Below, in pieces: positions 1-30,933 of a DNA stretch of 64,000 nucleotides (position 1 is the stretch's first letter; each line of letters opens with the position of its first letter). The stretch is from Sedimentisphaerales bacterium (GTDB lineage: Bacteria > Planctomycetota > Phycisphaerae > Sedimentisphaerales > Anaerobacaceae): the NCBI GenBank assembly GCA_050012695.1, contig JBEKGR010000008.1, positions 11,092 to 75,091 of the forward strand, read 5' to 3'. A program made the position numbers and the translations under genes. Below the pieces are notes generated by a model. That model had not been told where the DNA came from and searched no databases. It saw only the letters and a list, made by a program, of their open reading frames with translations.

Positions 1-475
1 ATTTAACTGTCCCGCCCGTTTGCAATGGGACCTGAACTCCGAGGTCGGCCGTCTGGCTTTTATATTTTTGTGCTTGTTCAACTACAACCGATGGCTGGTC
101 TATGCTGCTATAACTTAAATTCGTGAAAAATGACGATTCGAACTTCGCTTCTTCTGCGCTTACCTGCCTGGCCGCCAACGTCGGCTCAATCAATTGAACC
201 TTCAAATCCAGGTTGTTCTTTAAAGTCATCGCCCGGCACTGCTCGATGCTGAGTTTTATCTCACCCTGCGCCGGTTTATTGACCTCTACTCCCTCATTCG
301 GGTCGTTCTTTTCTTCCAGTTTCAGCGTTTTAATCTCTCTGGTCTGCTCGGGCTTTACCTTTACCTCAAGAAAATCATCTTCTTTGGCAAACTCCTCACA
401 GCCGGCCAAAGCAATCGACATTCCCAGCACAAACATCAAAAATAAACTCTTCACAACAATCACTTTCCTACTCAT
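1..475 (-). CDS. TolC-family outer-membrane efflux lipoprotein, N-terminal part (continues past the left edge; absent from the supplied ORF track)
   Basis: Manual reverse translation from the ATG at 475 gives MSRKVIVVKSLFLMFVLGMSIALAGCEEFAKEDDFLEVKVKPEQ...IEQCRAMTLKNNLDLKVQLIEP. It has a signal peptide with an LAGC lipobox and a TolC/OMF-like N-terminal motif. The start overlaps the permease stop by 8 nt, so it is the last gene of the adaptor-ATPase-permease operon. Confidence 0.6.
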   Translation of the reverse strand, partial: MSRKVIVVKSLFLMFVLGMSIALAGCEEFAKEDDFLEVKVKPEQTREIKTLKLEEKNDPNEGVEVNKPAQGEIKLSIEQCRAMTLKNNLDLKVQLIEPTLAARQVSAEEAKFESSFFTNLSYSSIDQPSVVVEQAQKYKSQTADLGVQVPLQTGGTVK

Positions 476-1727
476 GTCTAAGCGATTCAATGGGGTCGAG
501 CCGGGCGGCTTTTATCGCCGGGAACATCCCGAAAACTATTCCAACTGTACCCGCGAAACCAAACGACAAAGCTATCGCCCAGGCGGGTATATATGTTTTT
601 TCCAGCAGCGGACTCATATGCGCTATCCCGAAAGTCAGAAGTTTGCCCACGCCGACGCCGACAAGACCGCCTACAAAGCACAGTATTATCGCCTCAATTA
701 AAAATTGCGTCAGTATGGCGGACTTCTTTGCGCCAACGGCTTTTCGCAGTCCTATTTCCTTCGTCCGCTCGGATATCGAGACGAGCATTATGTTCATAAT
801 GCCTACTCCGCCGACCAGCAGAGAAATTCCGACTATGCCACCGGCGACCAGCGTTACCACAAGTGATATATTATTAAATGTCTGTATCGCGCTTTTGAGG
901 GACTCAACCCTGAAGGTATCCGGCTCGTCAGGATTAAGGTGTCGTTCGCGGCGGAAAAAGAATTTCAGCTCACCAACACCTTCATCGACAACCTCTGCCG
1001 ACTTCCCATCGGCAAGTGCCCATATCCAGAATTCCCTCTGGAATTTTGAAGCCGCATCGAAAGGAACAATTATTTCGTATCGCTCCTGTCCCCCGCCGCC
1101 GAATTGAAGGTCGTTGCGTTTTTCAATAACCCCGATTACACGGAAGTTCCTGAATCCTATTCGAATCGTTTCACCGATGCAGTCCCGGTCCATACCCAGC
1201 TTATCACGAAGTTCCGGCTCAATCAGGCAAACCATTTTCCCCGTGTCTATATCCGACAGTTCGCGGCCTATGACAAGCGGCCTGTGTTCAATCGAATGCC
1301 ACGCCGGCTCAACGCCGTAAATGTGAGCGTTCTGCACCGACTTCTCATTGTATTTTATCGTGTACTGCCCGGCCTCACTTATCTTTGTGAAACGCTGTAG
1401 CGACGGGCAATGCTCCAGAAGCCCCTCGAAGTCCCTTATTTTAAATCTTACATCCCACCACGTCAGCGTGCGCTTAAGTCCTTTATCAGGCAATTGCGGC
1501 TGAACTATTATCGTGTTGCTGCCGAATGTCTCGACCTGGCTGAGTATTTTCGCCTTCAGGCCCGTCAGCGCCGCTATCACCGCCGTAACAGACGCGACAC
1601 CGATAACTATCCCAACCGTCGTAAGTATCGACCTCGTTTTGTTGGCCCATATCTGCCCAAGGGCAAGATAAACGCTTTGGTAAACAAGGCGGATGAACAT
1701 AAGCGGCACGGCAAACAATCCCCTCAT
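468..1727 (-). CDS. MacB/FtsX-family ABC efflux permease
   Basis: 419 aa with an N-terminal TM, a large periplasmic domain and a C-terminal FtsX-type TM bundle (GGIVGISLLVGGVGIMNIMLVSISERTKEIGLRKAVGA). It overlaps the upstream ATPase gene by 4 nt. Confidence 0.85.
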   Translation of the reverse strand: MRGLFAVPLMFIRLVYQSVYLALGQIWANKTRSILTTVGIVIGVASVTAVIAALTGLKAKILSQVETFGSNTIIVQPQLPDKGLKRTLTWWDVRFKIRDFEGLLEHCPSLQRFTKISEAGQYTIKYNEKSVQNAHIYGVEPAWHSIEHRPLVIGRELSDIDTGKMVCLIEPELRDKLGMDRDCIGETIRIGFRNFRVIGVIEKRNDLQFGGGGQERYEIIVPFDAASKFQREFWIWALADGKSAEVVDEGVGELKFFFRRERHLNPDEPDTFRVESLKSAIQTFNNISLVVTLVAGGIVGISLLVGGVGIMNIMLVSISERTKEIGLRKAVGAKKSAILTQFLIEAIILCFVGGLVGVGVGKLLTFGIAHMSPLLEKTYIPAWAIALSFGFAGTVGIVFGMFPAIKAARLDPIESLRHE

Positions 1728-2488
1728 TCTGCATCCTCCGCTTTTTGGCCTGGCTTTTGTTCGTGGATATTGTCCTCGTCCGTTGTCCTGTCACTGCAAA
1801 TGTTACCGTCCTGCATCCTTATTATTCTTTGGGCGTGCTGCGCGACGTCGTACTCGTGCGTTACCATCACAATCGTCTGTCCCTGCCTGTGAAGCTCGTC
1901 GAAAAGCGCTAATATGCTGTTACTTGTCTTGGTATCGAGATTTCCCGTCGGCTCGTCGGCAAGCAGTATGCTCGGATTACAAACCAGCGCCCTGGCAATC
2001 GCAACCCGCTGTTTTTCGCCGCCCGAAAGCTGATTCGGCTTGTGTTTAACCCTGTCGCCCAGTCCGACCCGCTCAAGGGCCTTTTTTGCTCTGGCCGCCC
2101 TTCCAAACCACCCGTCGCGGGCATACAGCAGCGGCATCTCGACATTTTTCAAGGCGTTCATCTGGGGCAAAAGCTCAAACGACTGAAACACAAAACCAAT
2201 CCTTTCGTTGCGTATCTTCGCCAGTTCCGAATCCGCAAGCTCCGTAACGTTGTCGCCGTCAAGCTCATACACTCCTTGGCTTGCCCGGTCTAAGCACCCC
2301 AGCACGTTCATAAGCGTACTTTTGCCCGACCCGGAATGGCCCATCACCGCGATATATTCGTTCTCCCGCACCTCCAAATCCACGCCGTCCAGCGCATGTA
2401 TCTCTTCCACGCCGACCCTGTAGAATCGTTTCAGCTCCCTTAGCCGGATTACCACTTTCTCGTTTGGATTACCTGCCTGCTGATTCAT
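1724..2488 (-). CDS. ABC transporter ATP-binding protein (MacB/LolD type)
   Basis: Walker A GHSGSGKST, signature LSGGEKQRVAIARAL, Walker B ILLADEPTGNLD and H-loop VTHE. Confidence 0.9.
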   Translation of the reverse strand: MNQQAGNPNEKVVIRLRELKRFYRVGVEEIHALDGVDLEVRENEYIAVMGHSGSGKSTLMNVLGCLDRASQGVYELDGDNVTELADSELAKIRNERIGFVFQSFELLPQMNALKNVEMPLLYARDGWFGRAARAKKALERVGLGDRVKHKPNQLSGGEKQRVAIARALVCNPSILLADEPTGNLDTKTSNSILALFDELHRQGQTIVMVTHEYDVAQHAQRIIRMQDGNICSDRTTDEDNIHEQKPGQKAEDAE

Positions 2489-3887
2489 TGCTGTCGCTCT
2501 TGCCGTTTTTGTTTTTGGATTTTCCTTTTGCTGTTTCCCGCTCGTCTTTCAATTTCTGGTCCTGCTTGAGATTGTCCAGAACCTTATAAGGTCCGACTAC
2601 AACCTTGTCGCCCTCTTTAAGCCCCGCCAGAACTATCGTATGTGTCAAATCGCTTTGCCTTGCCTGGACGGGTGTAGCAACGGCTTTGCCGTCAATAAAC
2701 CTGTAAACAACCGTCGCGAATTTCTTACCCTTATCAAGCTCGGCGCTTTTATCACGGATATCCACCGGCAAACTGTCAACCTCTCTTGCCAGTATCGCCT
2801 GACTCGGCACAGTGATAACGTCGGGGTGTTTCCTCGTCTCGATATCAATGTCCGCCGTCAATCCGGTATAAAGCTTTGAGACATTCGAGTCGTTATCAAG
2901 CAGGATTTCCGTGCGGTAATATCTTGTCCCGTTATTGCTGAACCTGTGTTTTAGCGCAATCTCATCGACTGCACCTCTGAACTTGACATTGGGAAATGCC
3001 TGCACGCTCACAATCGCTTTTTGCCCGACCTCAAGCGCCCCGATATCCGCTTCATCAACCTGCGCCACCACCAGCATCTTAGAGCGGTCCGACACCTCCA
3101 TTATCACCGTCCCCGGGTTATTCATCGTCCCGGTCATTACCATTTCACCCACCTTGGCATTGACACGCGTTACAACGCCGTTGATTGGCGAGGTTATCGT
3201 AGTGTAACTGTAGTATTCCTTCGCTTCTTCAATCCTGGCTTCCGCGGCGTCGAGATTATGCTTCAATACCGTTATATTCTTTTCAGACGCCTCCAGATTA
3301 TATTTGGCCGACAGATATTGCCCCGCAAGCTCATCGACCTTGTATTTTATCAGGTCAAAATCTGCCTTGCTTATGTCTCTCGATTCAAACAGCCCCTTTT
3401 TCCTTTCGAGGTCCTTTTGTGACTGCTCCAGTGTAGCAGCAAGAGCCACAAGATTCGCTTTGCTGCCCTCAATCCTCGATCTCTCAACCTCTACCTGTGC
3501 CTCCTCTGCCGACCTGCTGGCTTCAGCTAATTTCAACTGGCTCTCCAAATCCTTTGCGTCAAGCTTGACCAGCACCGACGCAGGTATCGGCGGGTTAGCG
3601 TTCGGGTCGCCGCAGGTAACAACGTTGCCCTCGTCATAGGGCATATCAATTATCCGGGCAGACACCTTTGCGCTTATCTGAACCATTTCCTTTGGCTCAA
3701 TCTCACCCGTTGCGCTTACTCGCTCGGTCAAATCCCCGCGCTTGACCTCCTCAATACGCACCACTTCCTCTTTGGCTTTTCCTTTGTAACTTTTGGCCGC
3801 CAGCCCGCCAATCACCAGCAGCACTAAAACCACCACTATTGTAATAATAATCCATGTTCTACGTTTTTTCACAACCACACCTCTCAC
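2469..3887 (-). CDS. HlyD/MacA-family periplasmic adaptor (membrane fusion protein)
   Basis: 472 aa with an N-terminal membrane anchor (WIIITIVVVLVLLVIGGLAA), a long coiled-coil hairpin region and a beta-barrel C-terminal part. It is the first gene of the efflux operon. Confidence 0.8.
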   Translation of the reverse strand: MRGVVVKKRRTWIIITIVVVLVLLVIGGLAAKSYKGKAKEEVVRIEEVKRGDLTERVSATGEIEPKEMVQISAKVSARIIDMPYDEGNVVTCGDPNANPPIPASVLVKLDAKDLESQLKLAEASRSAEEAQVEVERSRIEGSKANLVALAATLEQSQKDLERKKGLFESRDISKADFDLIKYKVDELAGQYLSAKYNLEASEKNITVLKHNLDAAEARIEEAKEYYSYTTITSPINGVVTRVNAKVGEMVMTGTMNNPGTVIMEVSDRSKMLVVAQVDEADIGALEVGQKAIVSVQAFPNVKFRGAVDEIALKHRFSNNGTRYYRTEILLDNDSNVSKLYTGLTADIDIETRKHPDVITVPSQAILAREVDSLPVDIRDKSAELDKGKKFATVVYRFIDGKAVATPVQARQSDLTHTIVLAGLKEGDKVVVGPYKVLDNLKQDQKLKDERETAKGKSKNKNGKSDSNESAGR

Positions 3888-4152
3888 GCTAAAAAAACTG
3901 TTACGGGGCCTCCCCTGCCTTATTATGTCCTTTACCTATTATAACGTGCAACGTTACCGTTTTATTATCATAGTTTGTGTTTTTTTGCGATTTCGGCATC
4001 ATTTATTAGCATTTTTGGGCCTATTTGAGCATTTCAAAGCTGTATTTGGGGGGACCAATATTTAGCTAATCGCTATGATATTTTTGAAAATAGCAATATT
4101 GGGGTAAAAAGCCGCTCCTCTCCGCTGAAGCAAAATATCCCTGCCTGTCCAC

Positions 4153-4226
4153 TACGCCCGACAGGATTCGAACCTGTGACCTACGGATTAGAAATCCGTT
4201 GCTCTATCCAGCTGAGCTACGGGCGC
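4153..4226 (-). tRNA. tRNA-Arg (anticodon TCT)
   Basis: The reverse complement reads GCGCCCGTAGCTCAGCTGGATAGAGCAACGGATTTCTAATCCGTAGGTCACAGGTTCGAATCCTGTCGGGCGTA. It folds as a cloverleaf with a 7-bp acceptor stem (G1-U72 wobble), an ACGGA/TCCGT anticodon stem, the loop TTTCTAA and a GGTTCGAATCC T-arm. CCA is not encoded. Confidence 0.9.
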
Positions 4227-4307
4227 TAAATTTTTAAGTGGTGGTAGTATAACAACTTCTATCTTGCTTTGCCAATATCTGAAATGTCTTAGGGAGTTAA
4301 AAAGTGT
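4188..4307. repeat. Direct repeat copy A (120 bp): tRNA-Arg positions 1-38 plus 81 bp of upstream promoter region
   Basis: 119/120 identical to 21419..21538, with a single mismatch at 4293/21524. The inner boundary falls exactly at the end of the anticodon loop. Confidence 0.95.
4246..4275 (-). promoter_or_regulatory. Putative tRNA-Arg promoter (-35 TTGGCA, 18-nt spacer, extended -10 TGTTATACT)
   Basis: The minus strand reads TTGGCAAAGCAAGATAGAAGTTGTTATACTACCACC, about 20 nt upstream of tRNA position 1. It lies entirely inside repeat A. Confidence 0.5.
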
Positions 4308-4483
4308 CAGTCGCCCCCTGTTTTGGCTTCTCTTAATCTCTTAAAATCACTATGATCTGTTTCTGCCTGAATCTTGTGCCACGCATTGTAAACGGATGCT
4401 GTCATGCCGGGGTTCTAATTATAAGTGGCTCAGTTTTCGGGGGTAAGGTCACCGATAATATTAATAACCGGAAAGTACAAGTT

Positions 4484-4924
4484 ATGAAGCATTCTGAAAA
4501 ACTTAAAATTCTGTTTCTTTGCACCGGCAACTCCTGTCGGAGCCAGATGGCCGAGGGCTGGGCGAGAAAGTTTAAAAGCGATTCGATTGAGCCGTATTCG
4601 GCTGGTATAGAGCCACACGGTCTTGACCCGATTGCTGTCAAGGTTATGGCTGAGGTCGGCGTCGATATATCGAATAATCGCTCAAAACACCTCGACGATT
4701 TCAAAGGCGTAAATTTTGATTTCGTTATCACCGTCTGTGACCACGCCCACGAACACTGCCCCATTTTCTCCGGAAAAACCAGAGTTCTTCATTTCGGTTT
4801 TGATGACCCGCCTCGACTGGCAAAACAGGCAGCAAACGAGCAGGAAGTATTGGACATTTATCGTAGAGTGCGTGATGAAATAAAGGCGTTTGTGGAACAT
4901 TTACCAGATAACCTGGCGGAATGA
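4484..4924 (+). CDS. arsC: Arsenate reductase, thioredoxin-coupled LMW-PTP family
   Basis: Starts MKHSEKLKILFLCTGNSCRSQMAEGW, carrying the CX5R P-loop. It also has the Cys pair VCDHAHEHCP, as in Cys10/82/89-type ArsC. The start was moved to ATG 4484, codon 45 of the tracked ORF. Confidence 0.85.
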   Translation: MKHSEKLKILFLCTGNSCRSQMAEGWARKFKSDSIEPYSAGIEPHGLDPIAVKVMAEVGVDISNNRSKHLDDFKGVNFDFVITVCDHAHEHCPIFSGKTRVLHFGFDDPPRLAKQAANEQEVLDIYRRVRDEIKAFVEHLPDNLAE

Positions 4925-4944: not shown

Positions 4945-5499
4945 CTACGCATTAACCATGTTCCCTGAGCAGCTTCGTTTAAAAGCGATATAATCCTGCT
5001 CCTGCTGGTTTTCATTTCTGCAAATTTCCAGCATTCGATGGTTCTCATAAAGCCACGATTCCGCCCCGGGGCTTTTACCCATATCGAGGACAAATCTGAT
5101 ATTGACGCTAATGTCTCTCAGTGGCTCGATACCAGGTTCGCTGGATGCAAACTCCATAATCTCATCGATGTCTTCTATTACAACGCCTGTATAATACTGT
5201 TGATGTTCCCAGCGGTGCGGCACAATCAGTACGCAGCTTAGATTACTGAATGCCGACGGCCGGCCGAGCAGCAAAATGCCTGGGTCTATGACGGGTATAT
5301 ATGAGCCGTTAAATTCTATAACGCCTCTTATATGAGTGGGCTTCTTGTAATCGAGCTTTATAAGTTCCCTACAGCCCAGGCAACGCAGGTTTAATTTTCG
5401 TGTCTTGGTTTCATGAGCAAGCAGAAAGGTCGTAAACCAGTAATATTTGCTTTGGCTGATTTCTTCAACTTGCTGTGGCTCTTTTGTCATCGTTACCAT
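4945..5499 (-). CDS. CheW-like domain protein
   Basis: The core IRGVIEFNGSYIPVIDPGILLLG...CVLIV...YTGVVIEDIDEIMEF follows the CheW pattern (GV.NLRG..vPVvDL ... ivv ... G.vVD.V.eV). The rest of the protein is unassignable. Confidence 0.5.
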   Translation of the reverse strand: MVTMTKEPQQVEEISQSKYYWFTTFLLAHETKTRKLNLRCLGCRELIKLDYKKPTHIRGVIEFNGSYIPVIDPGILLLGRPSAFSNLSCVLIVPHRWEHQQYYTGVVIEDIDEIMEFASSEPGIEPLRDISVNIRFVLDMGKSPGAESWLYENHRMLEICRNENQQEQDYIAFKRSCSGNMVNA

Positions 5500-5685: not shown

Positions 5686-5739
5686 TTAATTCTTTTCTAA
5701 TCGATGCCTAATCGCACATCAACAAAAACGCATTAGACT
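5686..5739 (+). promoter_or_regulatory. Pho-box-type promoter for the DUF1559 / PstS-dockerin genes
   Basis: TTAAT, CTAAT, CTAAT and TCAAC(A) sit at 5686, 5697, 5708 and 5719, an exact 11-bp phase. Nine nt further on is TAGACT (5734..5739). This implies a leader of about 230 nt before the ATG at 5974. Confidence 0.55.
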
Positions 5740-5973
5740 TCTCTTCCAAATTACAGGGTTGCAGTTCAAGTATGGTGATTAGGAAAAAAGGAATGTCGAA
5801 ACTAAAACCGGTATCGCGATCAGTCGGAAGGTGCAGAAAAACTATCCCCAAATTTTTTAAAATTTTGGATTTTGGCAACCGTTCCAATCTGAGAAATGCC
5901 GGTTTTTTGTATGTTACCCGGGCCTGGAGGTCCGGACTATGAATAAGGGTTTTATTGGCTAAGGAGCGGTTTT

Positions 5974-7095
5974 ATGAAGGAATCAATTGTGGAAGCAAAA
6001 CAGGACGGAGTTTCAAAACGAAAACGAAGTATTATGCAGCAGTCGGGGTTCACTTTGGTGGAGTTGCTTGTCGTGATAGCCATCATTGCCTTGTTAATGG
6101 GAATATTGCTGCCAAGCTTAAACAAGGCAAGACAAACGGCATATTGCGCTAAAACAGGCGGCAATCTGCATAACGTGGGGCTTGCGATAGAAACATTCGC
6201 AGCTGATTTCGGGTCTTATCCGCCCTCGTATTTGTATCCCAAAGATGCGACTGTCGATGACGTTAAGTCAATAATGTGCAATGAGGACGAAAGCCATCCG
6301 TACGGCTATGTGCACTGGTCATGGTTTCTGTTTGAAAGCGGACGCGTGGATGCAAGCGCATTTACCTGCCCCGCGGTCAAAGGCGGCGGATGTCCTCGCA
6401 CCAATCCGGGCAAGAAGTTGTCTGATTGGGAAAATGGCCAACAGGACCAGACCAGCAGCAGCGGACCAAACCCCACGCTTCAGGATAAGCAGGCGCCTCG
6501 AATGGCGTTTACCGCCAACGCGGTGATTATACCGAGGAATAAATTCACCTGCGATGACACAGCCGGTTTAGCAAGGCATAACCGGCTTGTGACCCCCACG
6601 GAAATTCAACGCCCTGCCGAGGTAATCCTCTTAACCGAGTTTAACGAGGATTGGCAGGCCATTGAGGCGGTGGACAGTGGCTCCGGAACACTAGTAAGTA
6701 AAAGCCACAGGCCTATTCTGCCTTTTACGCATAGCGCAGCCGGTTATGCCGGCTACGCCATATATAATGATGCAGGGACCCGTTTTGAATATGGGACGGG
6801 ATATAATACCGCGAATGTTTCCTGGGGGCTTAAGAACTTGGCGGATATTTCAAACCCAGCTAACCATTTCATTGACGGAGAAACCGGTCATCAGCTTAAC
6901 GCGGTAGGCAGACATCATCCCGGCACATGGAAAGCCACAACCGATAAGGGAGCAAACCAGGATATGGGCGGCACCACGATGTTCCTTTATTGCGACGGAC
7001 ATACCGAGAGAAAAACAATTCTGGAGACGGTTCAAAAACTCGAATGGGGCAAAAAATTCTACAGTGTAACGGGCGACCAGTTGGTCTTTTATTGA
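5974..7095 (+). CDS. DUF1559-type protein: prepilin-like N-terminal methylation domain plus a C-terminal H-X9-DG-like motif
   Basis: Has ...QQSG/FTLVELLVVIAIIALLMGILLPSL (class III signal, Glu at +5) and the C-terminal motif MFLYCDGHTE. An AAGGAG RBS lies 7 nt before the ATG at 5974. An alternative start at 6034 would give a short leader. Confidence 0.8.
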   Translation: MKESIVEAKQDGVSKRKRSIMQQSGFTLVELLVVIAIIALLMGILLPSLNKARQTAYCAKTGGNLHNVGLAIETFAADFGSYPPSYLYPKDATVDDVKSIMCNEDESHPYGYVHWSWFLFESGRVDASAFTCPAVKGGGCPRTNPGKKLSDWENGQQDQTSSSGPNPTLQDKQAPRMAFTANAVIIPRNKFTCDDTAGLARHNRLVTPTEIQRPAEVILLTEFNEDWQAIEAVDSGSGTLVSKSHRPILPFTHSAAGYAGYAIYNDAGTRFEYGTGYNTANVSWGLKNLADISNPANHFIDGETGHQLNAVGRHHPGTWKATTDKGANQDMGGTTMFLYCDGHTERKTILETVQKLEWGKKFYSVTGDQLVFY

Positions 7096-7292
7096 TAGCG
7101 GATGATATTTAGGTGGCCGCATAATAAATTAACAAAGAACTTATTTTATTGAGAATAAAAAAGAGTGAAGGAGAAAGGAGTGACTGTAAGGTAAAAAGCA
7201 AAACTGGCGACGGGCGAGGGTGTTGAACATTAATAAGTAAAATTTAATTTATGTGTATAACTTGATAACTTTAGGTATTGTTAGGAGGAAAA

Positions 7293-9890
7293 ATGAGTAT
7301 TAGGAAAACTGTTTTTACAATTACAGCTTTGTGCTGTATCCTGCAGGCCTCACTTTTTGCGGCTGCATACGGCAACAGAAACCAGGTAAATATCACAGGC
7401 GCGACTTTGTTTGCGAATTTCTTCGCGGCGCCCGCGGGAACCAATGACTACTTAGGCGTTGACCAGGGTCTTGATTATATGGACAGCACCGGCGCTCGCC
7501 TGTACACTGACGGAGATTTCTTCCGGCTCTATGACCCGTATAATGCCAACCTCCCTGACCAATTGGCATTCACCGACTGGACTTCGACTGACGCGAATAA
7601 CCGCTGGGTAGTGCAAAGTCGCGGCGTCGGCAGTGGTAACGGTTTGAAAGAGCTCGACCTGTTCTATAACAGCGCTCCTCCCGGTCCGGGCGACCCGAAT
7701 TTTGTACTCCCAAATGACAAGTCATATATCAACCGTACGCAATGGGGCTACTCCGGCGGATTGATGGGCCCCGGTAATGCAGCTAACCCGGGTGGATGCG
7801 TTGTAGTTCCGCCAAGAATTGATATGGCCGTTATGGATGTTCCGCCGACATGGTTTGTGATGGCAGGCACAGATGTAAATGCTGACTGGCAGGCACATCC
7901 GCTGGATGCGACAAATGGCTATGGCCGTAACCCGATTAAATCATGGGACACCGCCCAGAGCAATAAATTGAAATCCCTGACCAACCTGAATTTGAACAAA
8001 GACCTCGGTTTAGCCGCTAATGCGCTGACCATATATGACACCCAGGTAGCATGGGTTCCAATTGCGTTTATTGCCAGCCAGGGAACCGGCTTGCAAAATG
8101 TTACTCAGAATGATTTGGAATATCTGTATTTGACCGGTCGTATGCCCGGCGGTGAAAACCTTTATGCCTGCACACGCGACTCCGGTTCAGGCACTCGTAA
8201 CGCAGCAATGAACTCTCTTGGTTTTGACCCGAGCTGGGGCAGAGGCGACAATATGGGCACCAAGAACTCAAATGGTAACGTTTCTTATGTCGGACCAATC
8301 CATCAGTCAAGCAACCTCGACGGCACAAGTGTTATGGCAAATGCCGTTACGAGCCAGCGTTTGGCGGTCGGATACGTCGGTCTTACAACTGCTAACACAG
8401 CAACCGGCGCGTCCAACTCGGCTTATCAAATACTGAATCTCAAAAAGACAGGCGGCACACAATATGTCAGGCCTTCACGCGAAAACACCGTAGATAACAG
8501 TGGTATTGATACCGGCTGGCAAGTCGGCGGAAACGAGACCTTCGCGACAGTCGGCAGTCCTGACCCAACTGCTGCCTTCGTGATGCCTTACAACAGGGCT
8601 GCACGCGACTATCTCTGGAACATCAAAACGAGTATAGCCGAATTTATTGCCCCCACCGGCGCTGACGATTTGAATAATATGCCCGGTCAGTACCTGGCCA
8701 GGAACTGGTCGCTGGCTGCCGCTCTCACGGCAATTCCAGATGACGTTAATCATAACCCGAGCGTTTTCGTTGCAAATCCGAATTACAACGCGAATGTGAA
8801 TGCGTATTACAAGGCACTGGGCCCAGTTACACCGGCCTGGGTCGATGGCCCGGGTAAAGTCCCGACAAGAGTTGTCGGCCCCGTCTACAGCGATGGCACA
8901 ACCGGCTCGTACTACCTTGCTTCGGATGGAACACATCTTGCCAACGGCGGAAATCTGAATGCCCGTAACACAATTATGGGCGACTTCGACAACGACGGAA
9001 AACGCGACATCGGCGACATTCACGATATGATGGTTGCATTCTCCAATCCTCGCGGCTTCGAGACAGCCGGCGCAACCGGCGTTTGCCCGGAAATCATCGG
9101 CGACTTCACTGCCGACGGCAACTTCACAACCGATGATATTCGTTACTTTGCCGATGGTCTGGCAGTTGTTGACCCGGTCAGCAAACAGGTCAATCGCTCA
9201 GTTGGTTTTGCATTAGTTGACCAGGCCTGGACCGCAGCCCTTGCTGCTATCGATAGCAATCATCCGACAGCAGGTAACTTCTTCAATACGACTCTTGCAC
9301 ACGGCACCTATCAGGCCGGTTCCGGCTGGTCAAAGGCCGACGTCGCAACGCACAATTGGAGAACAACTAATCCGAACATTGGTTATGCCCCAAGCGCAGA
9401 TGGCACAATTGACGCCTGCGACATTGACTACATCTACTTCACACAGCGCGGCGGACTTAAGGCAAAGTCCTTTGGTCAGACCCTGGCTGCCAACTGCAAC
9501 TCGTGGCAGAAAGCTATGAGCTGGAGCAACCTTGATGACGCTATATGGATGGATTTGACCTGCGACCTCAATGGCGATATGAAAGTTGATATCGAAGACG
9601 TCAGAATCATCGTTGAAGACATCCTCGGAACACATTTCGGCGATATAAACCTAGATGGCGTTGTTAATGCTGCCGACATTGCGATTATTACCGCTCACCT
9701 TGGTCAACAGGGCGGCTGGGCACAGGGTGATGTGGATGGTGACGGCTGGATTACCCAGTGCGACCTCGATATCGCAAACGGCCTTGTACAAATAGGCGGA
9801 CAAGTCGGAAGTCCTGACCTCAACGGCGACCACTTTGTGGACTTCCAGGACTTTGCTATCTTTGCAAATAGCTGGCTGCAGAGTATTTAA
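7293..9890 (+). CDS. Secreted PstS-fold (PBP_like_2) substrate-binding domain protein with C-terminal dockerin/EF-hand-like repeats
   Basis: Signal peptide MSIRKTVFTITALCCILQASLFAAA. PstS-like landmarks are GVGSGNGL and YACTRDSGSGTRNAA (compare VSRDTSSGTYETF in the PstS at 16164..16982). There are at least five D-x-D/N-x-D-G Ca-loop repeats (DFDNDGKRDIGD, GDFTADGNFTTDD, DLNGDMKVDIED, GDINLDGVVNAAD, GDVDGDGWITQCD, DLNGDHFVDFQDF). An AGGAGG RBS precedes the ATG at 7293. Confidence 0.7.
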   Translation: MSIRKTVFTITALCCILQASLFAAAYGNRNQVNITGATLFANFFAAPAGTNDYLGVDQGLDYMDSTGARLYTDGDFFRLYDPYNANLPDQLAFTDWTSTDANNRWVVQSRGVGSGNGLKELDLFYNSAPPGPGDPNFVLPNDKSYINRTQWGYSGGLMGPGNAANPGGCVVVPPRIDMAVMDVPPTWFVMAGTDVNADWQAHPLDATNGYGRNPIKSWDTAQSNKLKSLTNLNLNKDLGLAANALTIYDTQVAWVPIAFIASQGTGLQNVTQNDLEYLYLTGRMPGGENLYACTRDSGSGTRNAAMNSLGFDPSWGRGDNMGTKNSNGNVSYVGPIHQSSNLDGTSVMANAVTSQRLAVGYVGLTTANTATGASNSAYQILNLKKTGGTQYVRPSRENTVDNSGIDTGWQVGGNETFATVGSPDPTAAFVMPYNRAARDYLWNIKTSIAEFIAPTGADDLNNMPGQYLARNWSLAAALTAIPDDVNHNPSVFVANPNYNANVNAYYKALGPVTPAWVDGPGKVPTRVVGPVYSDGTTGSYYLASDGTHLANGGNLNARNTIMGDFDNDGKRDIGDIHDMMVAFSNPRGFETAGATGVCPEIIGDFTADGNFTTDDIRYFADGLAVVDPVSKQVNRSVGFALVDQAWTAALAAIDSNHPTAGNFFNTTLAHGTYQAGSGWSKADVATHNWRTTNPNIGYAPSADGTIDACDIDYIYFTQRGGLKAKSFGQTLAANCNSWQKAMSWSNLDDAIWMDLTCDLNGDMKVDIEDVRIIVEDILGTHFGDINLDGVVNAADIAIITAHLGQQGGWAQGDVDGDGWITQCDLDIANGLVQIGGQVGSPDLNGDHFVDFQDFAIFANSWLQSI

Positions 9891-10001
9891 CTTAGGATTC
9901 CTTCATAGGCCGAGATAAGCTGCTGAGGCGAGTACCCGTCGTACCTCCAACGGCAGGCCCTGGGAGAAGTGAGCACATACTTTTCCTGGGGCCGCTCGGT
10001 T

Positions 10002-10618: not shown

Positions 10619-10672
10619 TTAATCGTATTTTAATTAGTTGCTAACGCAACTCCAACGTATCGCCGGTATCTT
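10619..10672 (+). promoter_or_regulatory. Pho-box-type promoter for the second DUF1559 gene
   Basis: TTAAT, TTAAT, CTAAC and CCAAC sit at 10619, 10630, 10641 and 10652, an exact 11-bp phase. Nine nt further on is TATCTT (10667..10672). The implied leader is about 160 nt. Confidence 0.5.
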
Positions 10673-10837: not shown

Positions 10838-11848
10838 ATGCTTATGAAGAAAAAAGGATTTACGCTGGTAGAACTGTTAGTCGTCATTGCGATAATAGCG
10901 CTATTGATGGGCATTCTGCTGCCTTCATTGGCACGTGTCAAGGTAATCGCAAACAGGATGAAATGCGCCTCTCACCTGGCCGATGTCGGTAAATCTATGA
11001 TGATGTATGCGGAAGAGAACCGGCAGAGTTATCCGGTCGGAGGCATCCGTGGCAGCACATGGACACAATTTAATACAACTACCACCGGCATCTTGAAATG
11101 GGACGCATCAACAAGGGAATTGGCATTCGCAAACAACGGCAAGAATGCCACGATATCTTCGTGCCTGTTTTTATTGATTAAATACGGCAATATGGTGCCT
11201 AAACAATTCACCTGCCCGGACGATGCCGATGCCAAAGAATTTACTTTAGCCGATGAGTATAAGTCCATGGGTGTTACAGACACCACCAAAATGATCAGGG
11301 AACTTTCGGACGCCTGGGACTTTGGCGGCAACCCCGGCGCAAGCTGCAGTTATTCATATCATATGCCCTTCCCAAACACCGATGACGTCACAAAATCATA
11401 TTGTTTAGACCAAGTATCAAGTCCGGGAAGCCCGCTTTGTGCGGACAGAAATCCCTACCTGGATAAAAATGCCAAAGATTACCTGAAAGACCCGAGGATT
11501 CCTAATCCATATCTGGGAGCAACAGACGGGGAATACCACGATGACAAATTCAAAGGTAATTGTGCTTCTCATGGCCGCAAGGCGCAAAACGTTTTATTTA
11601 ACGACGGCCACGTCGCCGCCGAGTTGTATCCAAATTGCGGGGTAAACAACGACAATATATGGAAGTTCTGGCCTTCCTATACCACGGCGCCTACAAATAT
11701 ACAACTTGAAGTTGGAGCAGGGACAGCTCCTCCTCCGGCGTCGGCAAGCGCAGAAAATCTCCAATATACACCAGGCGCTGGTTCTGCATCTCCAAAGAGT
11801 AAAGACGATGCCTGCCTTGTCAACGAAAGAAACGATAATAAAGAGTAG
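10838..11848 (+). CDS. DUF1559-type protein: prepilin-like N-terminus plus an H-X9-DG-like motif
   Basis: Starts MLMKKKG/FTLVELLVVIAIIALLMGILLPSL and has the C-terminal motif HGRKAQNVLFNDGHV. An AAGGAG RBS precedes the ATG at 10838, codon 13 of the tracked ORF. Confidence 0.8.
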   Translation: MLMKKKGFTLVELLVVIAIIALLMGILLPSLARVKVIANRMKCASHLADVGKSMMMYAEENRQSYPVGGIRGSTWTQFNTTTTGILKWDASTRELAFANNGKNATISSCLFLLIKYGNMVPKQFTCPDDADAKEFTLADEYKSMGVTDTTKMIRELSDAWDFGGNPGASCSYSYHMPFPNTDDVTKSYCLDQVSSPGSPLCADRNPYLDKNAKDYLKDPRIPNPYLGATDGEYHDDKFKGNCASHGRKAQNVLFNDGHVAAELYPNCGVNNDNIWKFWPSYTTAPTNIQLEVGAGTAPPPASASAENLQYTPGAGSASPKSKDDACLVNERNDNKE

Positions 11849-16163: not shown

Positions 16164-16982
16164 TTAGTAGTTCGTCACAGGAACAAACCCCTTCGCTAAA
16201 ATAATTTCCTGGCCCTTTTCGGTCAGATAGAACGTGCAGAACTTAAAGACCGTTGACCCAAGTTTCGGATAGCCATTTGTGAACATAAACAAAGGTCTTG
16301 CAACGGGGTAAGTACCGTTTGCAATGGTCTGCTTTGTCGGCGCAATTCCGTCGATTTTCAACGCCTTGACCTCGGCATCAACGAAACCAATACCGACGTA
16401 GCTGATTGCACCGGCGGTGGTTTTCACTCTTGCCTGTGCCTGCGGATTTGAGTTGACGTATTCGACGTTTTTGGCCAGCTCTTCCTTGTTCATAACCTTC
16501 TCGTGGAACGTCTCGTATGTTCCCGACGATGTGTCTCTGCTGACAATCACTATTTCCGCATCAGGTCCGCCTATTTCTTTCCAGTTCTTGGTTTTGCCAT
16601 TATAAATATCTCGCACCTGGGCCGTAGTCAGTGCGGCTACCGTGTTCGACGGATGCACGATGATACATACCCCGTCCATCGCAATCGCGTGTGCAACCGG
16701 GAATACGTTGTGGTCAACGGCGCTTTTGAATTCTTTGTCCTTCATAAACCGGCTCAAAGTCGCTATGTCGCACCGGCTGTCAATTAGTGCGGCAGCCCCG
16801 TCGCCACTACCGGTCTTTTTTACGGTAATCTCAAGACCGGGGTTGGTCCTCATAAAATATTCAGCAAAAGCATCTGCAATCGGACCGACAGTTGTCGAAC
16901 CATCGATTTGCAGCGTCTCCGCCCGCACCAGACCTGTGGCTGCGAGCATCAGTAAAGCTAAACTAAATACCAATCTCTTCAT
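16164..16982 (-). CDS. pstS: Phosphate-binding protein PstS
   Basis: Has a signal peptide, GSTTVGPIADAFAEYF and VSRDTSSGTYETF (PBP_like_2). It is the first gene of pstSCAB-phoU. Confidence 0.85.
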   Translation of the reverse strand: MKRLVFSLALLMLAATGLVRAETLQIDGSTTVGPIADAFAEYFMRTNPGLEITVKKTGSGDGAAALIDSRCDIATLSRFMKDKEFKSAVDHNVFPVAHAIAMDGVCIIVHPSNTVAALTTAQVRDIYNGKTKNWKEIGGPDAEIVIVSRDTSSGTYETFHEKVMNKEELAKNVEYVNSNPQAQARVKTTAGAISYVGIGFVDAEVKALKIDGIAPTKQTIANGTYPVARPLFMFTNGYPKLGSTVFKFCTFYLTEKGQEIILAKGFVPVTNY

Positions 16983-21121: not shown

Positions 21122-21418
21122 ACCAAAATTCCGGGAAGGTATGACATTATGTTACTTTACTGAAAAACACAAAAGCAGCACGTATAATTAAACAGGTTTG
21201 ATTGCAATCACTACTATTGTTCTTCGTTAGCAGCTATAGCATCGGTTGAGGGATTTGGTCAAGCATTGTCAACGGTGTCAAAAAAGTGTCAGTCGCCAGT
21301 GGTTTACCACTGTAAGTTCACTTGTAAACGAGTAGTTAACCACTTGTAATCCTCGTTTTTAGCCCAAAAACGAGATGCAACCCATTGTTAACACTATACT
21401 TACAACCACCATTTTGGG

Positions 21419-21457
21419 TTAGAAATCCGTTGCTCTATCCAGCTGAGCTACGGGCGC
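21419..21457 (-). pseudogene. Truncated tRNA-Arg(TCT) copy: positions 1-38 only (acceptor 5' strand, D-arm, anticodon stem 5' strand and loop)
   Basis: Identical to 4188..4226. No matching 3' half (no ggattcgaacc on the plus strand) occurs anywhere in 21039..21418. Confidence 0.9.
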
Positions 21458-27066: not shown

Positions 27067-28515
27067 TCAGGGTGCAATCGAACGCGCCGTTGCATATATT
27101 ATGGTTACTATCGGAGAAAACATAGCGTAGGCGATGAACCCAACCATCAGCCCAAGGCAAATTGTCTCACAGGGGCCTATTATGAACCTGGCCAACGTGG
27201 CCGCCCGGCTGTAACCCCAGCGATATGATGTTTCAAGCGTTTCGAGAATATCGAGAGTATTTCGATGGTTATGCACGTCTGCAAAGGCCCATGCCATTGC
27301 GCTTCCCATACCGCACTGCCGGGCTGACAGGCCTATATCGTCTCCGCGTTCAACCATTGCCAGCCAGTTTTTAACTTCTCTCCTGAAGCATTCGTTTATA
27401 TCCAGCCGGAGTGCATTGGCTATCGCCTCGTTGACGGTGCAGCCGGCATTAAGCGAAAGCCGAAGCATACCGGCTACCCGCTGCATCGCGCAACACCACG
27501 CATACCACCGTATAAAAGGCAGATGCCACTTTAAAAAATCGCCTATGCGGGAAATCAAATACGGTTTTTCAACTCGACGCGGTCTGGACCTGACGCGAAT
27601 ATAAATAATGCCGCAAACCAATAGCAACAGGCCCGACAGCAGGATAATCAACGACCCGAACCCCTTCGTAAAAAATTCAGCTATTGATATCAAAGCAATT
27701 GTTGCCGCCGGTAATTTGCCTTCGACCATCTCCATGAGGACAGATTGATACTTCGGTATGATAAATGTCATCAGCATTAACACTACAACAAACATCACAA
27801 GCAGCACTAACGGCGGATATAACAAGGGAATGTGCCTGACTTTTTTGCTGGTGTTTGCCTTTAATACCAAATCCTGCTCGAGGGCGCCAATCGCCTGCGG
27901 CACCTGGCCTATTCGCTCGCCGGCAGCCACCATCGACGTGATATAACCGGGACATTTAGGATACCCACGTCTTAAGGATTCGCTCAAAGAGTATCCCTCA
28001 ACAAGCCACTTCTTTATATTTCGAAGTGTGCCTGCTCTTTTCTCATCCTGACCTACAGCAGCCATTTCCAGCGCCATAGGCAGCGGAAGATTCTGCTTCA
28101 TACTCGCACCAATCGTGGTTATTACATAAGAAGACCTGGCCAGTTCTGATGTAGCGAACGCGCCGATTACCGCCCCTATAAACAACTGCACAAAAACCAA
28201 CCCAAATCCTCCCCAGGCGCCAAAAGCAGCAAATGCAGCAATCGTAAACAGAATCAGGACACAGGCCATCAGGACCCTTCTTGCCCAGATTCTGGCCCAT
28301 CCGGAACCCTCCCTGCGAGGACGGAAAGCAATTATCAACAGCGTAACAAAAAAAATGATAGGTGCAGATACATATATCTCCACTTCTTCGAATATAATGC
28401 CTTGAATCCACATAACAACGCTGAACAAAATGCCGGCAACAAATCCCAGACCCGGCTTATAAAAAGCAAGCACTCCAGAGGCGACCAACAATACAATTGC
28501 CAAAGCAACCAGCAT
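27067..28515 (-). CDS. GspF/PilC-family platform protein paralog with an N-terminal extension of about 125 aa and 4 TM
   Basis: Has two T2SSF-like halves (IGASMKQNLPLPMALEMAAVG...SMVAAGERIGQVPQAIGAL and LRLSLNAGCTVNEAIANALRL...). They are preceded by four hydrophobic helices that are absent from the neighbouring canonical GspF. Confidence 0.6.
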   Translation of the reverse strand: MLVALAIVLLVASGVLAFYKPGLGFVAGILFSVVMWIQGIIFEEVEIYVSAPIIFFVTLLIIAFRPRREGSGWARIWARRVLMACVLILFTIAAFAAFGAWGGFGLVFVQLFIGAVIGAFATSELARSSYVITTIGASMKQNLPLPMALEMAAVGQDEKRAGTLRNIKKWLVEGYSLSESLRRGYPKCPGYITSMVAAGERIGQVPQAIGALEQDLVLKANTSKKVRHIPLLYPPLVLLVMFVVVLMLMTFIIPKYQSVLMEMVEGKLPAATIALISIAEFFTKGFGSLIILLSGLLLLVCGIIYIRVRSRPRRVEKPYLISRIGDFLKWHLPFIRWYAWCCAMQRVAGMLRLSLNAGCTVNEAIANALRLDINECFRREVKNWLAMVERGDDIGLSARQCGMGSAMAWAFADVHNHRNTLDILETLETSYRWGYSRAATLARFIIGPCETICLGLMVGFIAYAMFSPIVTIIYATARSIAP

Positions 28516-28523
28516 AAAAATCC

Positions 28524-29729
28524 TTAACCACCAACATTAAGAACTGAAATTATCTTTATCATTGGCAAAAACATCGCCATGACGGACATCATTATAAAAA
28601 CGCCCACAACAATAATCATAACGGGCAGCAGTAATCCCTGCAGGCGAACTTGGGCACTGCGAACCTGCTGGGCATACATATCGCCCAAGCTTCGCATGTT
28701 GTCTTCCAGCTCATTTCGCTGCGAACCCAATTGAATTGAATAAAGGAAGAACCGGGGCATAACCCGGCAGAATTGGCCGGCATCAAGAATACTTACCCCT
28801 TTCTCAATTTGCCCGGCGATAATGTTACCCTCCTTTATCAGTGTTTCACTGCCCGCCGCGTCAGGCGCAAGCCGCAGGCACGTCGGCATATCGCAGCCGG
28901 CTGCAACCATCATTGCCATCGCCTCAGCCATCTTGCTCAATATGGTGCTGTGATACAAAGGCCCGAACGCGGGTATGTGTAAAATTATCGCTTCCCTGAT
29001 TCGCCGTCCTTCCGGGAATGACCGGAGAATAGTATTGATTCCAGCAATCGCGACAACCAGACAGCCAACCACCAGCCAGAAATATAAAATATGATCCGAC
29101 ATAGATAAGGCGAACTGCGTCACCATAGGCAATCCATTCCCTCCCAGCATTTCTATTAAAACATCCCTGAATTTTGGAATCAAAAACACGAGCACAAAAG
29201 TCATAATAATGGAACCCATAACAAAGACAACCGCCGGATAGGCCATCGCCTCGAATACTATCCGTCTTGTCTGGTTGGTAATCTCAATGTGCCTGTTCAA
29301 GCTCGTCAGCATTTCACTGAGCCGGCCCGTCTCTACGCCGGCCTTGAGTATCCGGCCATAGAGCGGCGGGAAATGTTCTTTCCTTTTCTCAAAGGCCCGC
29401 TCAATGCTCATTCCCGTCTCGAGGTCCAAGGCAATCGAATCTATCAGCTTGCGCATCGGCTTCGAGGCCACGTCCTTCGACAACTCTCGCAATCCTTTTT
29501 CGAGTGGGATTCCCGCTTTTGTAAGCGAGGCAAGCTGCTGATTGAAAAGCAAAAACTCGGTCCTGGCAATAGGCGTCTTGGGCCTTTCGGATTTGGCTTT
29601 TTCGAGCGAATTGACTTTGAGCTGCATCTGCTCAAGCAATTCAGATGCTTCCTGCACCGACCCGGCTTCGATAATACCTTTCATCAGCCGGTCGGAAGCC
29701 GTCATCGCACTATATTCAAAAGTCGCCAT
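28524..29729 (-). CDS. gspF: Type II secretion / type IV pilus platform protein GspF/PilC
   Basis: 401 aa with two T2SSF domains (FNQQLASLTKAGIPLEKGLREL...LKAGVETGRLSEML and MAMMVAAGCDMPTCLRL...IQLGSQRNELEDNM) and 3 TM. Confidence 0.8.
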   Translation of the reverse strand: MATFEYSAMTASDRLMKGIIEAGSVQEASELLEQMQLKVNSLEKAKSERPKTPIARTEFLLFNQQLASLTKAGIPLEKGLRELSKDVASKPMRKLIDSIALDLETGMSIERAFEKRKEHFPPLYGRILKAGVETGRLSEMLTSLNRHIEITNQTRRIVFEAMAYPAVVFVMGSIIMTFVLVFLIPKFRDVLIEMLGGNGLPMVTQFALSMSDHILYFWLVVGCLVVAIAGINTILRSFPEGRRIREAIILHIPAFGPLYHSTILSKMAEAMAMMVAAGCDMPTCLRLAPDAAGSETLIKEGNIIAGQIEKGVSILDAGQFCRVMPRFFLYSIQLGSQRNELEDNMRSLGDMYAQQVRSAQVRLQGLLLPVMIIVVGVFIMMSVMAMFLPMIKIISVLNVGG

Positions 29730-29757
29730 CCTGAATCTCCCGTCTTAAATCAACCTG

Positions 29758-30933
29758 TCAAATATCCCCTGCCGAACCGCATACCTTATCCAGCTCATCC
29801 TGTGTGGTCAGGCCATCGGCAACCAGTCGCCTGCCGTCTTCAACCATACCAGTGTGCCCTTTATTAGTCAGGACTTTCTCAATTTCATCAGTATCGGTCC
29901 TGGCGAGAATCGCTTTTCGCAACTGGCTGTCAAGCCGGACAAGCTCGGCAATCAACATCCTGCCTCTAAATCCCGTTCCAAAACAATTATCGCATCCTAC
30001 CGGTTCGTAATTGCCGGCTGTGGTCTGCTTCTTGCATTTGTCGCATAGTCGGCGGATGAGCCGTTGATTCAGAACAGCCGATATGCTTGACGTCACCTGG
30101 TATGGCTCGATACCCATCTCCAGAAGGCGTAGAATCGCCGTCGCGGCTGAGCCGCTGTGCATTGTGCTCATCAGCAGATGCCCCGTAAGGCCGGCTTCAA
30201 TTGCTATCTTCGCTGTTTCAGCATCCCGAATCTCACCTATCATCAGAACTTGGGGGTCCTGGCGAAGGAGTGAACGCAGAGCCGTCGGGAAAGTCATCGG
30301 ACCGAAAGGCGTGATTTGAACCTGGGTAACGCCGTCGAGTCGAATCTCCACAGGGTCTTCCAGAGTGACGATGCTTTTACCCGGAAATTGTTTCTGGATA
30401 TGCCGCAGAACCGCACCTAAGGTAGTGCTTTTGCCGCTGCCCGCCGGTCCGGTTACCAGCAGAACACCCTGATTAGCATAGGTGATTTGCTTCAACGCAG
30501 CATATATCTCTGGTGCGAATCCGAGTTGTCCAAGGTCTGTCAACTCGGAGTTCTGGTAGAAAATTCTTACAACGGCCCTTTGACCGTATATTGTCGGAAA
30601 TACCGAGAGCCGACGGTCAATAATATTTGTATGACCGTTATTGGTTTCCATTCGCCCTTCCTGCGGCACGTCGTTGCGATACGTCAGAAGTCCGCCCAGA
30701 ACCTTCAGGCGAGAAATCACATTGTCCGAAACGGCTTTTGGCAAAGATTCGACCGTGTTCAGCACCCCGTCAAGACGAAATTTTACTATCAGGTCTGAAC
30801 CGGTGGGTTCAAAATGAATGTCGCTGGCGCCTGTATCCACAGCTTTTGTGAGCAGTTCATCCACAAGGACGACAACATCACCCGGTTGTGTTTTTTGCTC
30901 GTAAGATTTGTTCCCATAAGGAGTTAAAGCCAT
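29758..30933 (-). CDS. gspE: GspE/PilB-family secretion ATPase, short form
   Basis: Walker A GPAGSGKST, Asp and His boxes, and the tetracysteine motif CDKCKK...CDNCFGTGFRGR. That motif is typical of GspE/PilB and not of PilT. At 391 aa it lacks the N1E-type N-terminal domain. Confidence 0.8.
   Translation of the reverse strand: MALTPYGNKSYEQKTQPGDVVVLVDELLTKAVDTGASDIHFEPTGSDLIVKFRLDGVLNTVESLPKAVSDNVISRLKVLGGLLTYRNDVPQEGRMETNNGHTNIIDRRLSVFPTIYGQRAVVRIFYQNSELTDLGQLGFAPEIYAALKQITYANQGVLLVTGPAGSGKSTTLGAVLRHIQKQFPGKSIVTLEDPVEIRLDGVTQVQITPFGPMTFPTALRSLLRQDPQVLMIGEIRDAETAKIAIEAGLTGHLLMSTMHSGSAATAILRLLEMGIEPYQVTSSISAVLNQRLIRRLCDKCKKQTTAGNYEPVGCDNCFGTGFRGRMLIAELVRLDSQLRKAILARTDTDEIEKVLTNKGHTGMVEDGRRLVADGLTTQDELDKVCGSAGDI

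Follow-up and report, generated by a model that had tools for sequence, protein, structure and literature searches.

Psp, a DING protein of Pseudomonas, is a Pho-induced homologue of the phosphate-binding protein PstS that is secreted chiefly by the type II system Hxc and has been proposed to scavenge phosphate for the Pst transporter (PMC2225411), and the surface appendages of P. aeruginosa in which PstS is found likewise come close to the system described here (PMC2242829). That system is a two-gene module in a 64,000-nt stretch of DNA (hereafter 'the window') from a Sedimentisphaerales bacterium of the Planctomycetota (GenBank assembly GCA_050012695.1, contig JBEKGR010000008.1, positions 11,092-75,091 of the forward strand). 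Gene A (5974-7095, + strand) encodes a pilin-like protein of 373 aa, and gene B (7293-9890, + strand) encodes an exported protein of 865 aa in which a PstS-fold domain is followed by a calcium-loop/dockerin tail, as judged from its open reading frame (ORF), Pfam, its homologues, an AlphaFold2 (AF2) model and Foldseek. A first-pass annotation of this DNA had interpreted the pair as a phosphate-starvation capture module, an interpretation that is supported as far as sequence analysis goes. It had also described the architecture as one without a characterised example. This holds for the architecture itself, in that our literature search found no paper describing a PstS-dockerin or a PstS-PEP-CTERM protein, but not for the function, which has a precedent in the type-II-secreted, Pho-regulated DING protein Psp (PMC2225411). 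The module has the fold and ligand motifs of PstS, fails the tests with curated PstS hidden Markov models (HMMs) and for DING proteins, and matches no published architecture; we therefore class it, from its sequence features, with the exported PstS-family phosphate binders of the Pho regulon, as an apparently new architecture whose nearest functional precedent, by analogy, is the Psp/DING-Hxc system of Pseudomonas.

The likeness to Psp lies in the fold: gene B is likewise PstS-fold, and DING structures are among its fold matches. Induction under phosphate limitation, export past the periplasm via pseudopilin-based machinery and scavenging for a cell-bound Pst are traits of Psp/DING that can be put alongside those proposed here for gene B. 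Nonetheless gene B is not a DING protein, as it lacks the DINGGG N-terminus (its mature N-terminus reads YGNRNQVNITGATLF) and, at 865 aa versus ~40 kDa, is about twice the size. In contrast to Psp, it adds seven calcium loops and a dockerin, or in other lineages a PEP-CTERM tail; its partner is one dedicated pilin gene of the DUF1559 type, apparently in the same operon, with no full hxc cluster; and its host belongs to the Planctomycetota rather than to Pseudomonas.

The evidence that carries this comparison comes from the N-terminal part of gene B (residues ~31-520, 7383-8852, + strand), a PstS-fold domain with large insertions that was identified by Foldseek, a family profile, hhalign and invariant columns. 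Both of the PstS landmarks named in the first-pass annotation are present, GVGSGNGL at residues 111-118 and TRDSGSGTRNAA at residues 294-305. Structure prediction, which had been proposed as a check on this half of the protein, gave a confident AF2 model from 45 homologues (predicted local distance difference test score (pLDDT) 85.2, predicted TM-score (pTM) 0.85) with a type II periplasmic-binding fold and PstS/DING proteins as its best matches. When this model was searched against PDB with Foldseek, ranks 1-45 were all PstS, PhoX or DING phosphate-binding proteins, with E-values down to 3e-6, probabilities mostly of 1.00 (range 0.90-1.00) and target-normalised TM-scores of 0.36-0.68; DING structures stood at ranks 39-44, and unrelated binding folds appeared only past rank 45. 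The order of secondary-structure elements in the model fits the topology of class II periplasmic-binding proteins: a strand leading to G-A-T, a strand leading to G-S-G and a helix, a strand leading to D, a long crossover strand, and a strand leading to R-D-x-G-S-G-T and a helix.

Profile searches recovered the same relationship. Because the full-length family profile is dominated by dockerins in a PDB search, we built an alignment of the N-terminal domain only (A2, from 15 relatives), whose profile matched five PDB sequences, all of them PstS (best 4ecf, E 0.005). Aligned by hhalign to 18 PstS from related loci, A2 gave one collinear local alignment (query 60-423 to PstS 30-253) that pairs GVGSGNG with GSGDG, RDSGSGT with RDTSSGT and AVGYVGL with AISYVGI (gene B and PstS, respectively). 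Single-sequence PstS templates yielded merely short local matches in hhalign, BLASTP of gene B against the window's PstS found nothing significant, and phmmer of gene B against PDB sequences returned dockerin/EF-hand matches only.

The eight phosphate ligands of E. coli PstS, namely T10, F11 (backbone), S38, D56, R135, S139, G140 and T141 (numbering checked against the sequence), have candidate counterparts by motif in gene B: T38/L39 for T10/F11, S114 for S38, D182 for D56, R295 for R135, and S299, G300 and T301 for S139-T141. The motifs that contain them (G36-A-T38-L39, G-S114-G, D182-V-P and R295-D-x-G-S299-G300-T301) do not vary among 45 relatives with identities as low as 38%, and three members at 30-37% identity keep them too. 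A check of the ligand residues, proposed earlier, thus finds the Thr, Ser, Asp and Arg-x3-Ser-Gly-Thr motif positions all apparently retained. Together, sequence and model support a gene B core that is a strongly diverged PstS-type fold holding the complete set of orthophosphate-binding motifs and, because that set is kept, gene B most likely binds inorganic phosphate. The pocket might instead accommodate some other phosphorus or oxyanion ligand, such as phosphite, arsenate, the end of a phosphate monoester or a polyphosphate terminus, and such a shift would fit the strong divergence from PstS, the large and family-specific conserved insertions, the low-molecular-weight (LMW) phosphatase/ArsC-like gene and ppk/ppx found nearby in close relatives, and the extracellular Endonuclease_1 gene nearby in one locus (L085). 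We regard it as quite improbable, given that none of the eight orthophosphate ligand positions varies, not even that of the Asp by which E. coli PstS selects protonated phosphate, and that the closest structures are all orthophosphate binders.

Compared with canonical PstS (PF12849; TIGR02136/TIGR00975), gene B shares the type II periplasmic-binding fold and the order of its N-terminal Thr, G-S-G, Asp and R-x3-S-G-T motifs, and the module likewise has a Pho-box promoter of like design and frequent linkage to pstCAB. It differs in being missed by the curated HMMs, in having a core made about twice as long by conserved insertions, in its putative C-terminal tether, in not being followed by permease genes of its own, and in forming a separate clade of ~500 clusters at 50% identity. 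As for its start, the mechanical ORF (7278-9890) opens with TTG and does encode the 870 aa that were first reported; however, a perfect AGGAGGA (7283-7289) precedes the ATG at 7293, so that this ATG is most likely the true start, giving 865 aa. The signal peptide reported at the outset is seen in residues 1-25 (7293-7367, + strand), which read as Sec-type, with cleavage probably after AAA and with no lipobox in the sequence as read; the N-terminus forms a single helix of low pLDDT in the AF2 model. The sole significant Pfam match in gene B is Dockerin_1.

The module also carries a phosphate-starvation promoter. The Pho promoters of the window's pstS, porin and phoB genes have TTAAC-like boxes with an 11-bp period, and upstream of gene A we found an array of the same kind, TTAAT-N6-CTAAT-N6-CTAAT-N6-TCAAC with an 11-bp period (5686-5723, + strand; four-box search and conservation), followed by a -10-like hexamer, TAGACT (5734-5739, + strand), that lies 15 nt past the start of the last box, a spacing common to the other Pho promoters. 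Elements with like spacing occur at pstS (17009-17004), the porin gene (18438-18433), the divergent CheW-like gene (5559-5554) and a second prepilin gene (10667-10672). A search of both strands of the window for four boxes (at least 14 of 20 matches) with TAnnnT exactly 15 nt after the last-box start returned exactly five sites, where 0.085 were expected from shuffles, and these lie upstream of pstS, the porin gene, the CheW-like gene, gene A and the second prepilin gene, all of them intergenic and co-oriented with their gene. Among nine related genomes the gene A array is the best-conserved intergenic block, while its flanks vary. An alternative in which the sole array was the one at 5607-5559, facing the minus-strand CheW-like gene and leaving none for gene A, was dropped once the conserved forward array had been found. 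Since the five-site search picks out the gene A array along with those of pstS and the porin gene, gene A is very probably a PhoB target, as the claim of Pho-box control had anticipated. The design (TTAAC-type boxes, 11-bp period, -10 at 15 nt from the last-box start) should be usable for mapping the Pho regulons of Sedimentisphaerales-type genomes.

Between the two genes lies a gap of 197 nt (7096-7292, + strand) that holds the gene B ribosome-binding site, AGGAGGA, and neither a Pho-box array nor a terminator-like site, just as had been claimed for it. Downstream of gene B, at 9956-9993 (+ strand), an intrinsic-terminator-like hairpin of 16 pairs with a T-run likely marks the end of the operon. 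As the gap has neither array nor terminator-like site and the hairpin and T-run come after gene B, the two genes are most simply read as one operon. Upstream, comparison with relatives points to a strongly conserved, non-coding 5' leader of ~228 nt on gene A (5746-5973, + strand), which contains a long imperfect hairpin ending in GCCGG-TTTTTT (~5803-5908). A structured RNA in this leader is unsupported (z = +0.43 versus shuffles, two compensatory pairs, no Rfam match), and a small ORF there was rejected because indels among the relatives are not multiples of three.

To what extent does the pair recur elsewhere? Relatives of gene B occur in at least 310 species-representative genomes, and a scan of 1.84 billion representatives gave 511 gene B clusters at E <= 0.001 (50% identity), which form a compact clade, separate from canonical PstS. 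We compared the 80 best gene B loci among species genomes (nine close, 71 distant); nearly all come from Planctomycetota, whether Phycisphaerae or others, with Sedimentisphaerales metagenome-assembled genomes (MAGs) from peat and fen the closest. In 75 of these loci, gene B is directly preceded on its own strand by a gene A orthologue (36-90% identity over at least half the length). Contig edges account for four of the five exceptions, and just one locus (L065) truly lacks gene A, hence the pairing holds in 75 of 76 testable loci; in the reverse look-up, all three gene A orthologues examined have a member of the gene B family next downstream. The co-occurrence test proposed for the two families thus bears out their association, which is specific to the gene A subfamily, because the other prepilin gene in the window has a head with no relation to that of gene A. 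Tested against dinucleotide shuffles (p <= 0.05), the upstream regions of 33 out of 64 distant gene A orthologues have a significant forward TTAAC-type array, as against 16 among 264 control regions, likewise upstream, from those loci; the pstS/porin promoters, our positive control, gave eight of 11.

The linkage to phosphate uptake genes recurs as well. NCBIfam identifies in the window the whole pst/pho cluster that had been reported, and the proximity of the pair to pst genes is repeated in other genomes, in varied arrangements. Seven of nine close and 10 of 71 distant loci (17/80) have two or more pst/phoU genes within 10 kb, and three further distant loci have one; the chance of such a phosphate neighbour for a random gene is estimated at ~1%. 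The pst genes may be downstream and co-oriented or upstream and divergent: five loci have the order geneA-geneB-porin-pstS-pstC-pstA, and another (L086) has geneA-geneB-pstSCAB-phoU with PhoB/PhoR-like genes upstream. The two remaining close loci have ppk1-ppx-CHAD-ppk2 instead of pst/phoU, and this polyphosphate metabolism cluster replaces the pst-pho cluster beside the module in some close relatives (L001, L002, L008 and L012).

Given the PstS fold, the ligand motifs, the adjacency to pst and a Sec signal peptide with no evidence of passage across the outer membrane, gene B could be simply an extra periplasmic PstS paralogue that feeds PstCAB, with a tail that stabilizes or oligomerizes it and with gene A as an unrelated pilin that is merely co-transcribed. 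Several observations make this rather unlikely. First, canonical PstS is always beside PstCAB in the pst-linked loci, so gene B is no replacement for it. Second, PstS is only a third as large as gene B, which has insertions around its lobes. Third, tails of the PEP-CTERM and dockerin kinds serve to sort or tether exported surface proteins. Finally, the presence of one specific pilin subfamily in all but one of the testable loci is too strict for chance.

Gene A is a prepilin-type protein with a divergent head of the DUF1559/H-X9-DG type, as judged from its ORF and a match to the prepilin model N_methyl. Its N-terminus, read from the translation, has a basic leader followed by the prepilin motif G-FTLVELLVVIAIIALL, with the cleavage motif G-FTLVELL at residues 25-32 by motif reading; N_methyl (PF07963) matches at E 1.2e-7 and TIGR02532 at 28.4 bits versus a cut-off of 16.3. 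Among 75 orthologues, 22 (in loci from L005 to L084) have Ala instead of the canonical Gly at prepilin position -1 (AFTLIELL). The earlier description of gene A as a DUF1559 pseudopilin stands for the prepilin motif and less directly for DUF1559, as PF07596 (DUF1559/SBP_bac_10) is sub-threshold on the window's protein (13.2 bits versus 23.3) and TIGR04294 is unlisted at E <= 1 in the NCBIfam scan. PF07596 does match 18 of 40 orthologues at E <= 0.01, and relatives carry the JGI label H-X9-DG protein, so that 'divergent DUF1559-type pilin-like protein' is a fair description. The major pseudopilin of type II secretion systems (T2SS), GspG (TIGR01710), scores 37.8 bits on gene A versus a cut-off of 88.85, with the match confined to the N-terminal 61 residues. 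The AF2 model (pLDDT 65) shows a long pilin helix at residues 28-79 and a mixed head, and matches no fold except, weakly, those of type IV pilins. Like the DUF1559/H-X9-DG prepilin-type proteins of Planctomycetota and Verrucomicrobiota, gene A has a prepilin cleavage/methylation motif, a long N-terminal helix and a C-terminal ...H...DGH... motif, and some of its orthologues attain the PF07596 cut-off; it differs from them as a distinct subfamily tied to one specific downstream partner. Our literature search found no paper that gives a function for any DUF1559 subfamily.

Machinery able to assemble a prepilin is present in the window, as it encodes T2SS/type IV pilus (T4P) assembly proteins on the minus strand: a T2SSE ATPase (29758-30933) and two T2SSF platform proteins (28524-29729 and 27067-28515). 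No prepilin-motif gene adjoins these genes (27067-30933), and no Pho box of the five-site design is nearby. A second prepilin-type gene, of 336 aa (10838-11848, + strand), has a Pho-box promoter of like design (10619-10672) and is likewise found 3' of the pair in two close relatives (L001 and L002).

The C-terminal region of gene B (residues 561-865, 8973-9887, + strand; sequence reading, Pfam and family profile) contains seven calcium-binding loop motifs, more than the 'at least five' first noticed, which begin near residues 564, 604, 701, 757, 784, 813 and 841 and span residues 564-858. The suggested search with Dockerin_1 gave a match above the gathering score at residues 783-827 (9639-9773; E 4e-7, 30.5 bits versus 22.9), and the full-length family profile matches solved dockerins in PDB at E 1e-8 to 1e-5. 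The first four loops lie in a region that is invariant in the family and the terminal dockerin is variable; a PEP-CTERM sorting signal comes after the tail in 18 of 115 full-length gene B homologues. As in the type I dockerins of cellulosomal enzymes, there are duplicated calcium-binding F-hand loops, a Dockerin_1 score above cut-off and profile matches to solved dockerins. In contrast to them, gene B has seven loops rather than two, and its cargo is a binding protein rather than a glycoside hydrolase.

Two further loci bear on how this tail might be used. In L090, two large proteins with Cohesin and Dockerin domains (Pfam) are encoded directly upstream of the geneA-geneB pair (1-4634) and are a possible docking partner for the tail; cohesin-domain neighbours were seen in this locus only. 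In Poriferisphaera corsica (L003, 13367-16262), a second pilin-like gene is followed by one for a 623-aa protein that has only the dockerin and PEP-CTERM tail in common with gene B, which hints at a modular design of a pilin plus a tailed cargo. The tail, the PEP-CTERM signals and these two loci favour, indirectly, a tethered and exported location for gene B. Tails of the dockerin and PEP-CTERM types are typically found on surface or matrix proteins, and Pho regulons include surface-remodelling genes; on these grounds the PstS fold could be a co-opted scaffold without any small-molecule ligand, with the pair serving, once induced by starvation, as an adhesin or a factor in envelope remodelling. 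Invariance of the ligand motif set in members down to 30% identity would be hard to explain without a ligand, and we give this idea very little credence.

The mechanism that we lean towards, with confidence only a little above even, is a Pho-regulated module in which a PstS-derived, calcium-stabilized and tethered gene B protein captures orthophosphate at the envelope for a porin-PstS-PstCAB route, and gene A serves as its anchor or export adaptor. Genes A and B would be transcribed as one operon under the phosphate-starvation regulator PhoB, and gene B would be exported through Sec. Its calcium-binding dockerin/EF-hand loops, plus a PEP-CTERM anchor in other lineages, would then tether it to the envelope or to a surface structure, presumably outside the outer membrane. 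Gene A would be its dedicated partner, assembled by a T2SS or T4P machine into a short fibre that carries gene B; alternatively it may be the adaptor for gene B export. When phosphate is limiting, the module would concentrate phosphate at the envelope and pass it to the Pho-regulated porin, PstS and PstCAB.

A number of results weigh against this capture mechanism. The proposed HMM search with PBP_like_2 came out negative, in that PF12849 gives no match in gene B at E <= 1 (Pfam), and TIGR02136 scores 11.3 bits, far below its cut-off of 206.6 (NCBIfam); for comparison, the window's own PstS (16164-16982) scores 136 and 264 bits on curated PstS models. The large insertions in the core could alter the ligand or block docking to PstCAB. 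Nothing shows gene B crossing the outer membrane, and no cohesin partner was seen among the window proteins scanned, a set that does not include every ORF. For gene A, the model is of moderate confidence only, and the fold search gave nothing informative on the head. Finally, ~80% of the distant loci are without pst genes within 10 kb, and no significant TTAAC array precedes about half of the distant gene A orthologues, where, however, the boxes may follow another consensus.

If envelope phosphate capture under Pho control is nevertheless the role of the module, it offers a testable function for a family now annotated merely as 'dockerin domain protein' or 'hypothetical', and one DUF1559/H-X9-DG pilin-like subfamily of the Planctomycetota is now linked to a specific partner and a physiological signal. 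Because many of the source genomes are MAGs from peat, fen and sediment, the module may matter for phosphorus acquisition in phosphate-poor anoxic habitats. More speculatively, the Phycisphaerae may possess a hitherto unrecognised surface-display or export system in which a dedicated DUF1559-type pilin is matched with a dockerin/PEP-CTERM-tailed cargo, this pair being the phosphate-harvesting version, with a pilus- or fibre-borne PstS-derived binder that feeds the porin and Pst. We put this forward tentatively and think it doubtful at present; if true, it would open a first way to the function of DUF1559 proteins, a very large family.

Upstream of the module and divergent from gene A is the CheW-like gene (4945-5499, - strand; 184 aa), whose Pfam match of 24.6 bits is just over the cut-off. 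The gene has its own four-box Pho promoter (5607-5554) and is kept in close relatives only; a Pho-regulated CheW-like gene is unusual. Its presence in the window and in close relatives, together with transcription-regulator or two-component genes directly upstream of the pair in several distant loci, could mean that the module is not a scavenger but a phosphate sensor or signalling device that informs a pilus-linked or chemotaxis-like pathway of external phosphate. However, the CheW-like gene is confined to close relatives, the upstream two-component genes resemble PhoB/PhoR themselves, and Pfam and NCBIfam scans found no signalling domain in gene A or gene B; a signalling role is thus very improbable.

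Some smaller features of the window lie near the module or the pho genes. An LMW phosphotyrosine phosphatase/ArsC-type gene (4484-4924, + strand) is kept upstream of the module in close relatives, and just before it is a tRNA-Arg(TCT) gene (4153-4226, - strand). Upstream of phoB, inverted and direct repeats at 21298-21349 lie near a sequence, GCGCCCGTAGCTCAGCTGGATAGAGCAACGGATT (~21415-21455, - strand), that resembles the 5' half of a tRNA and at which ARAGORN calls no gene.

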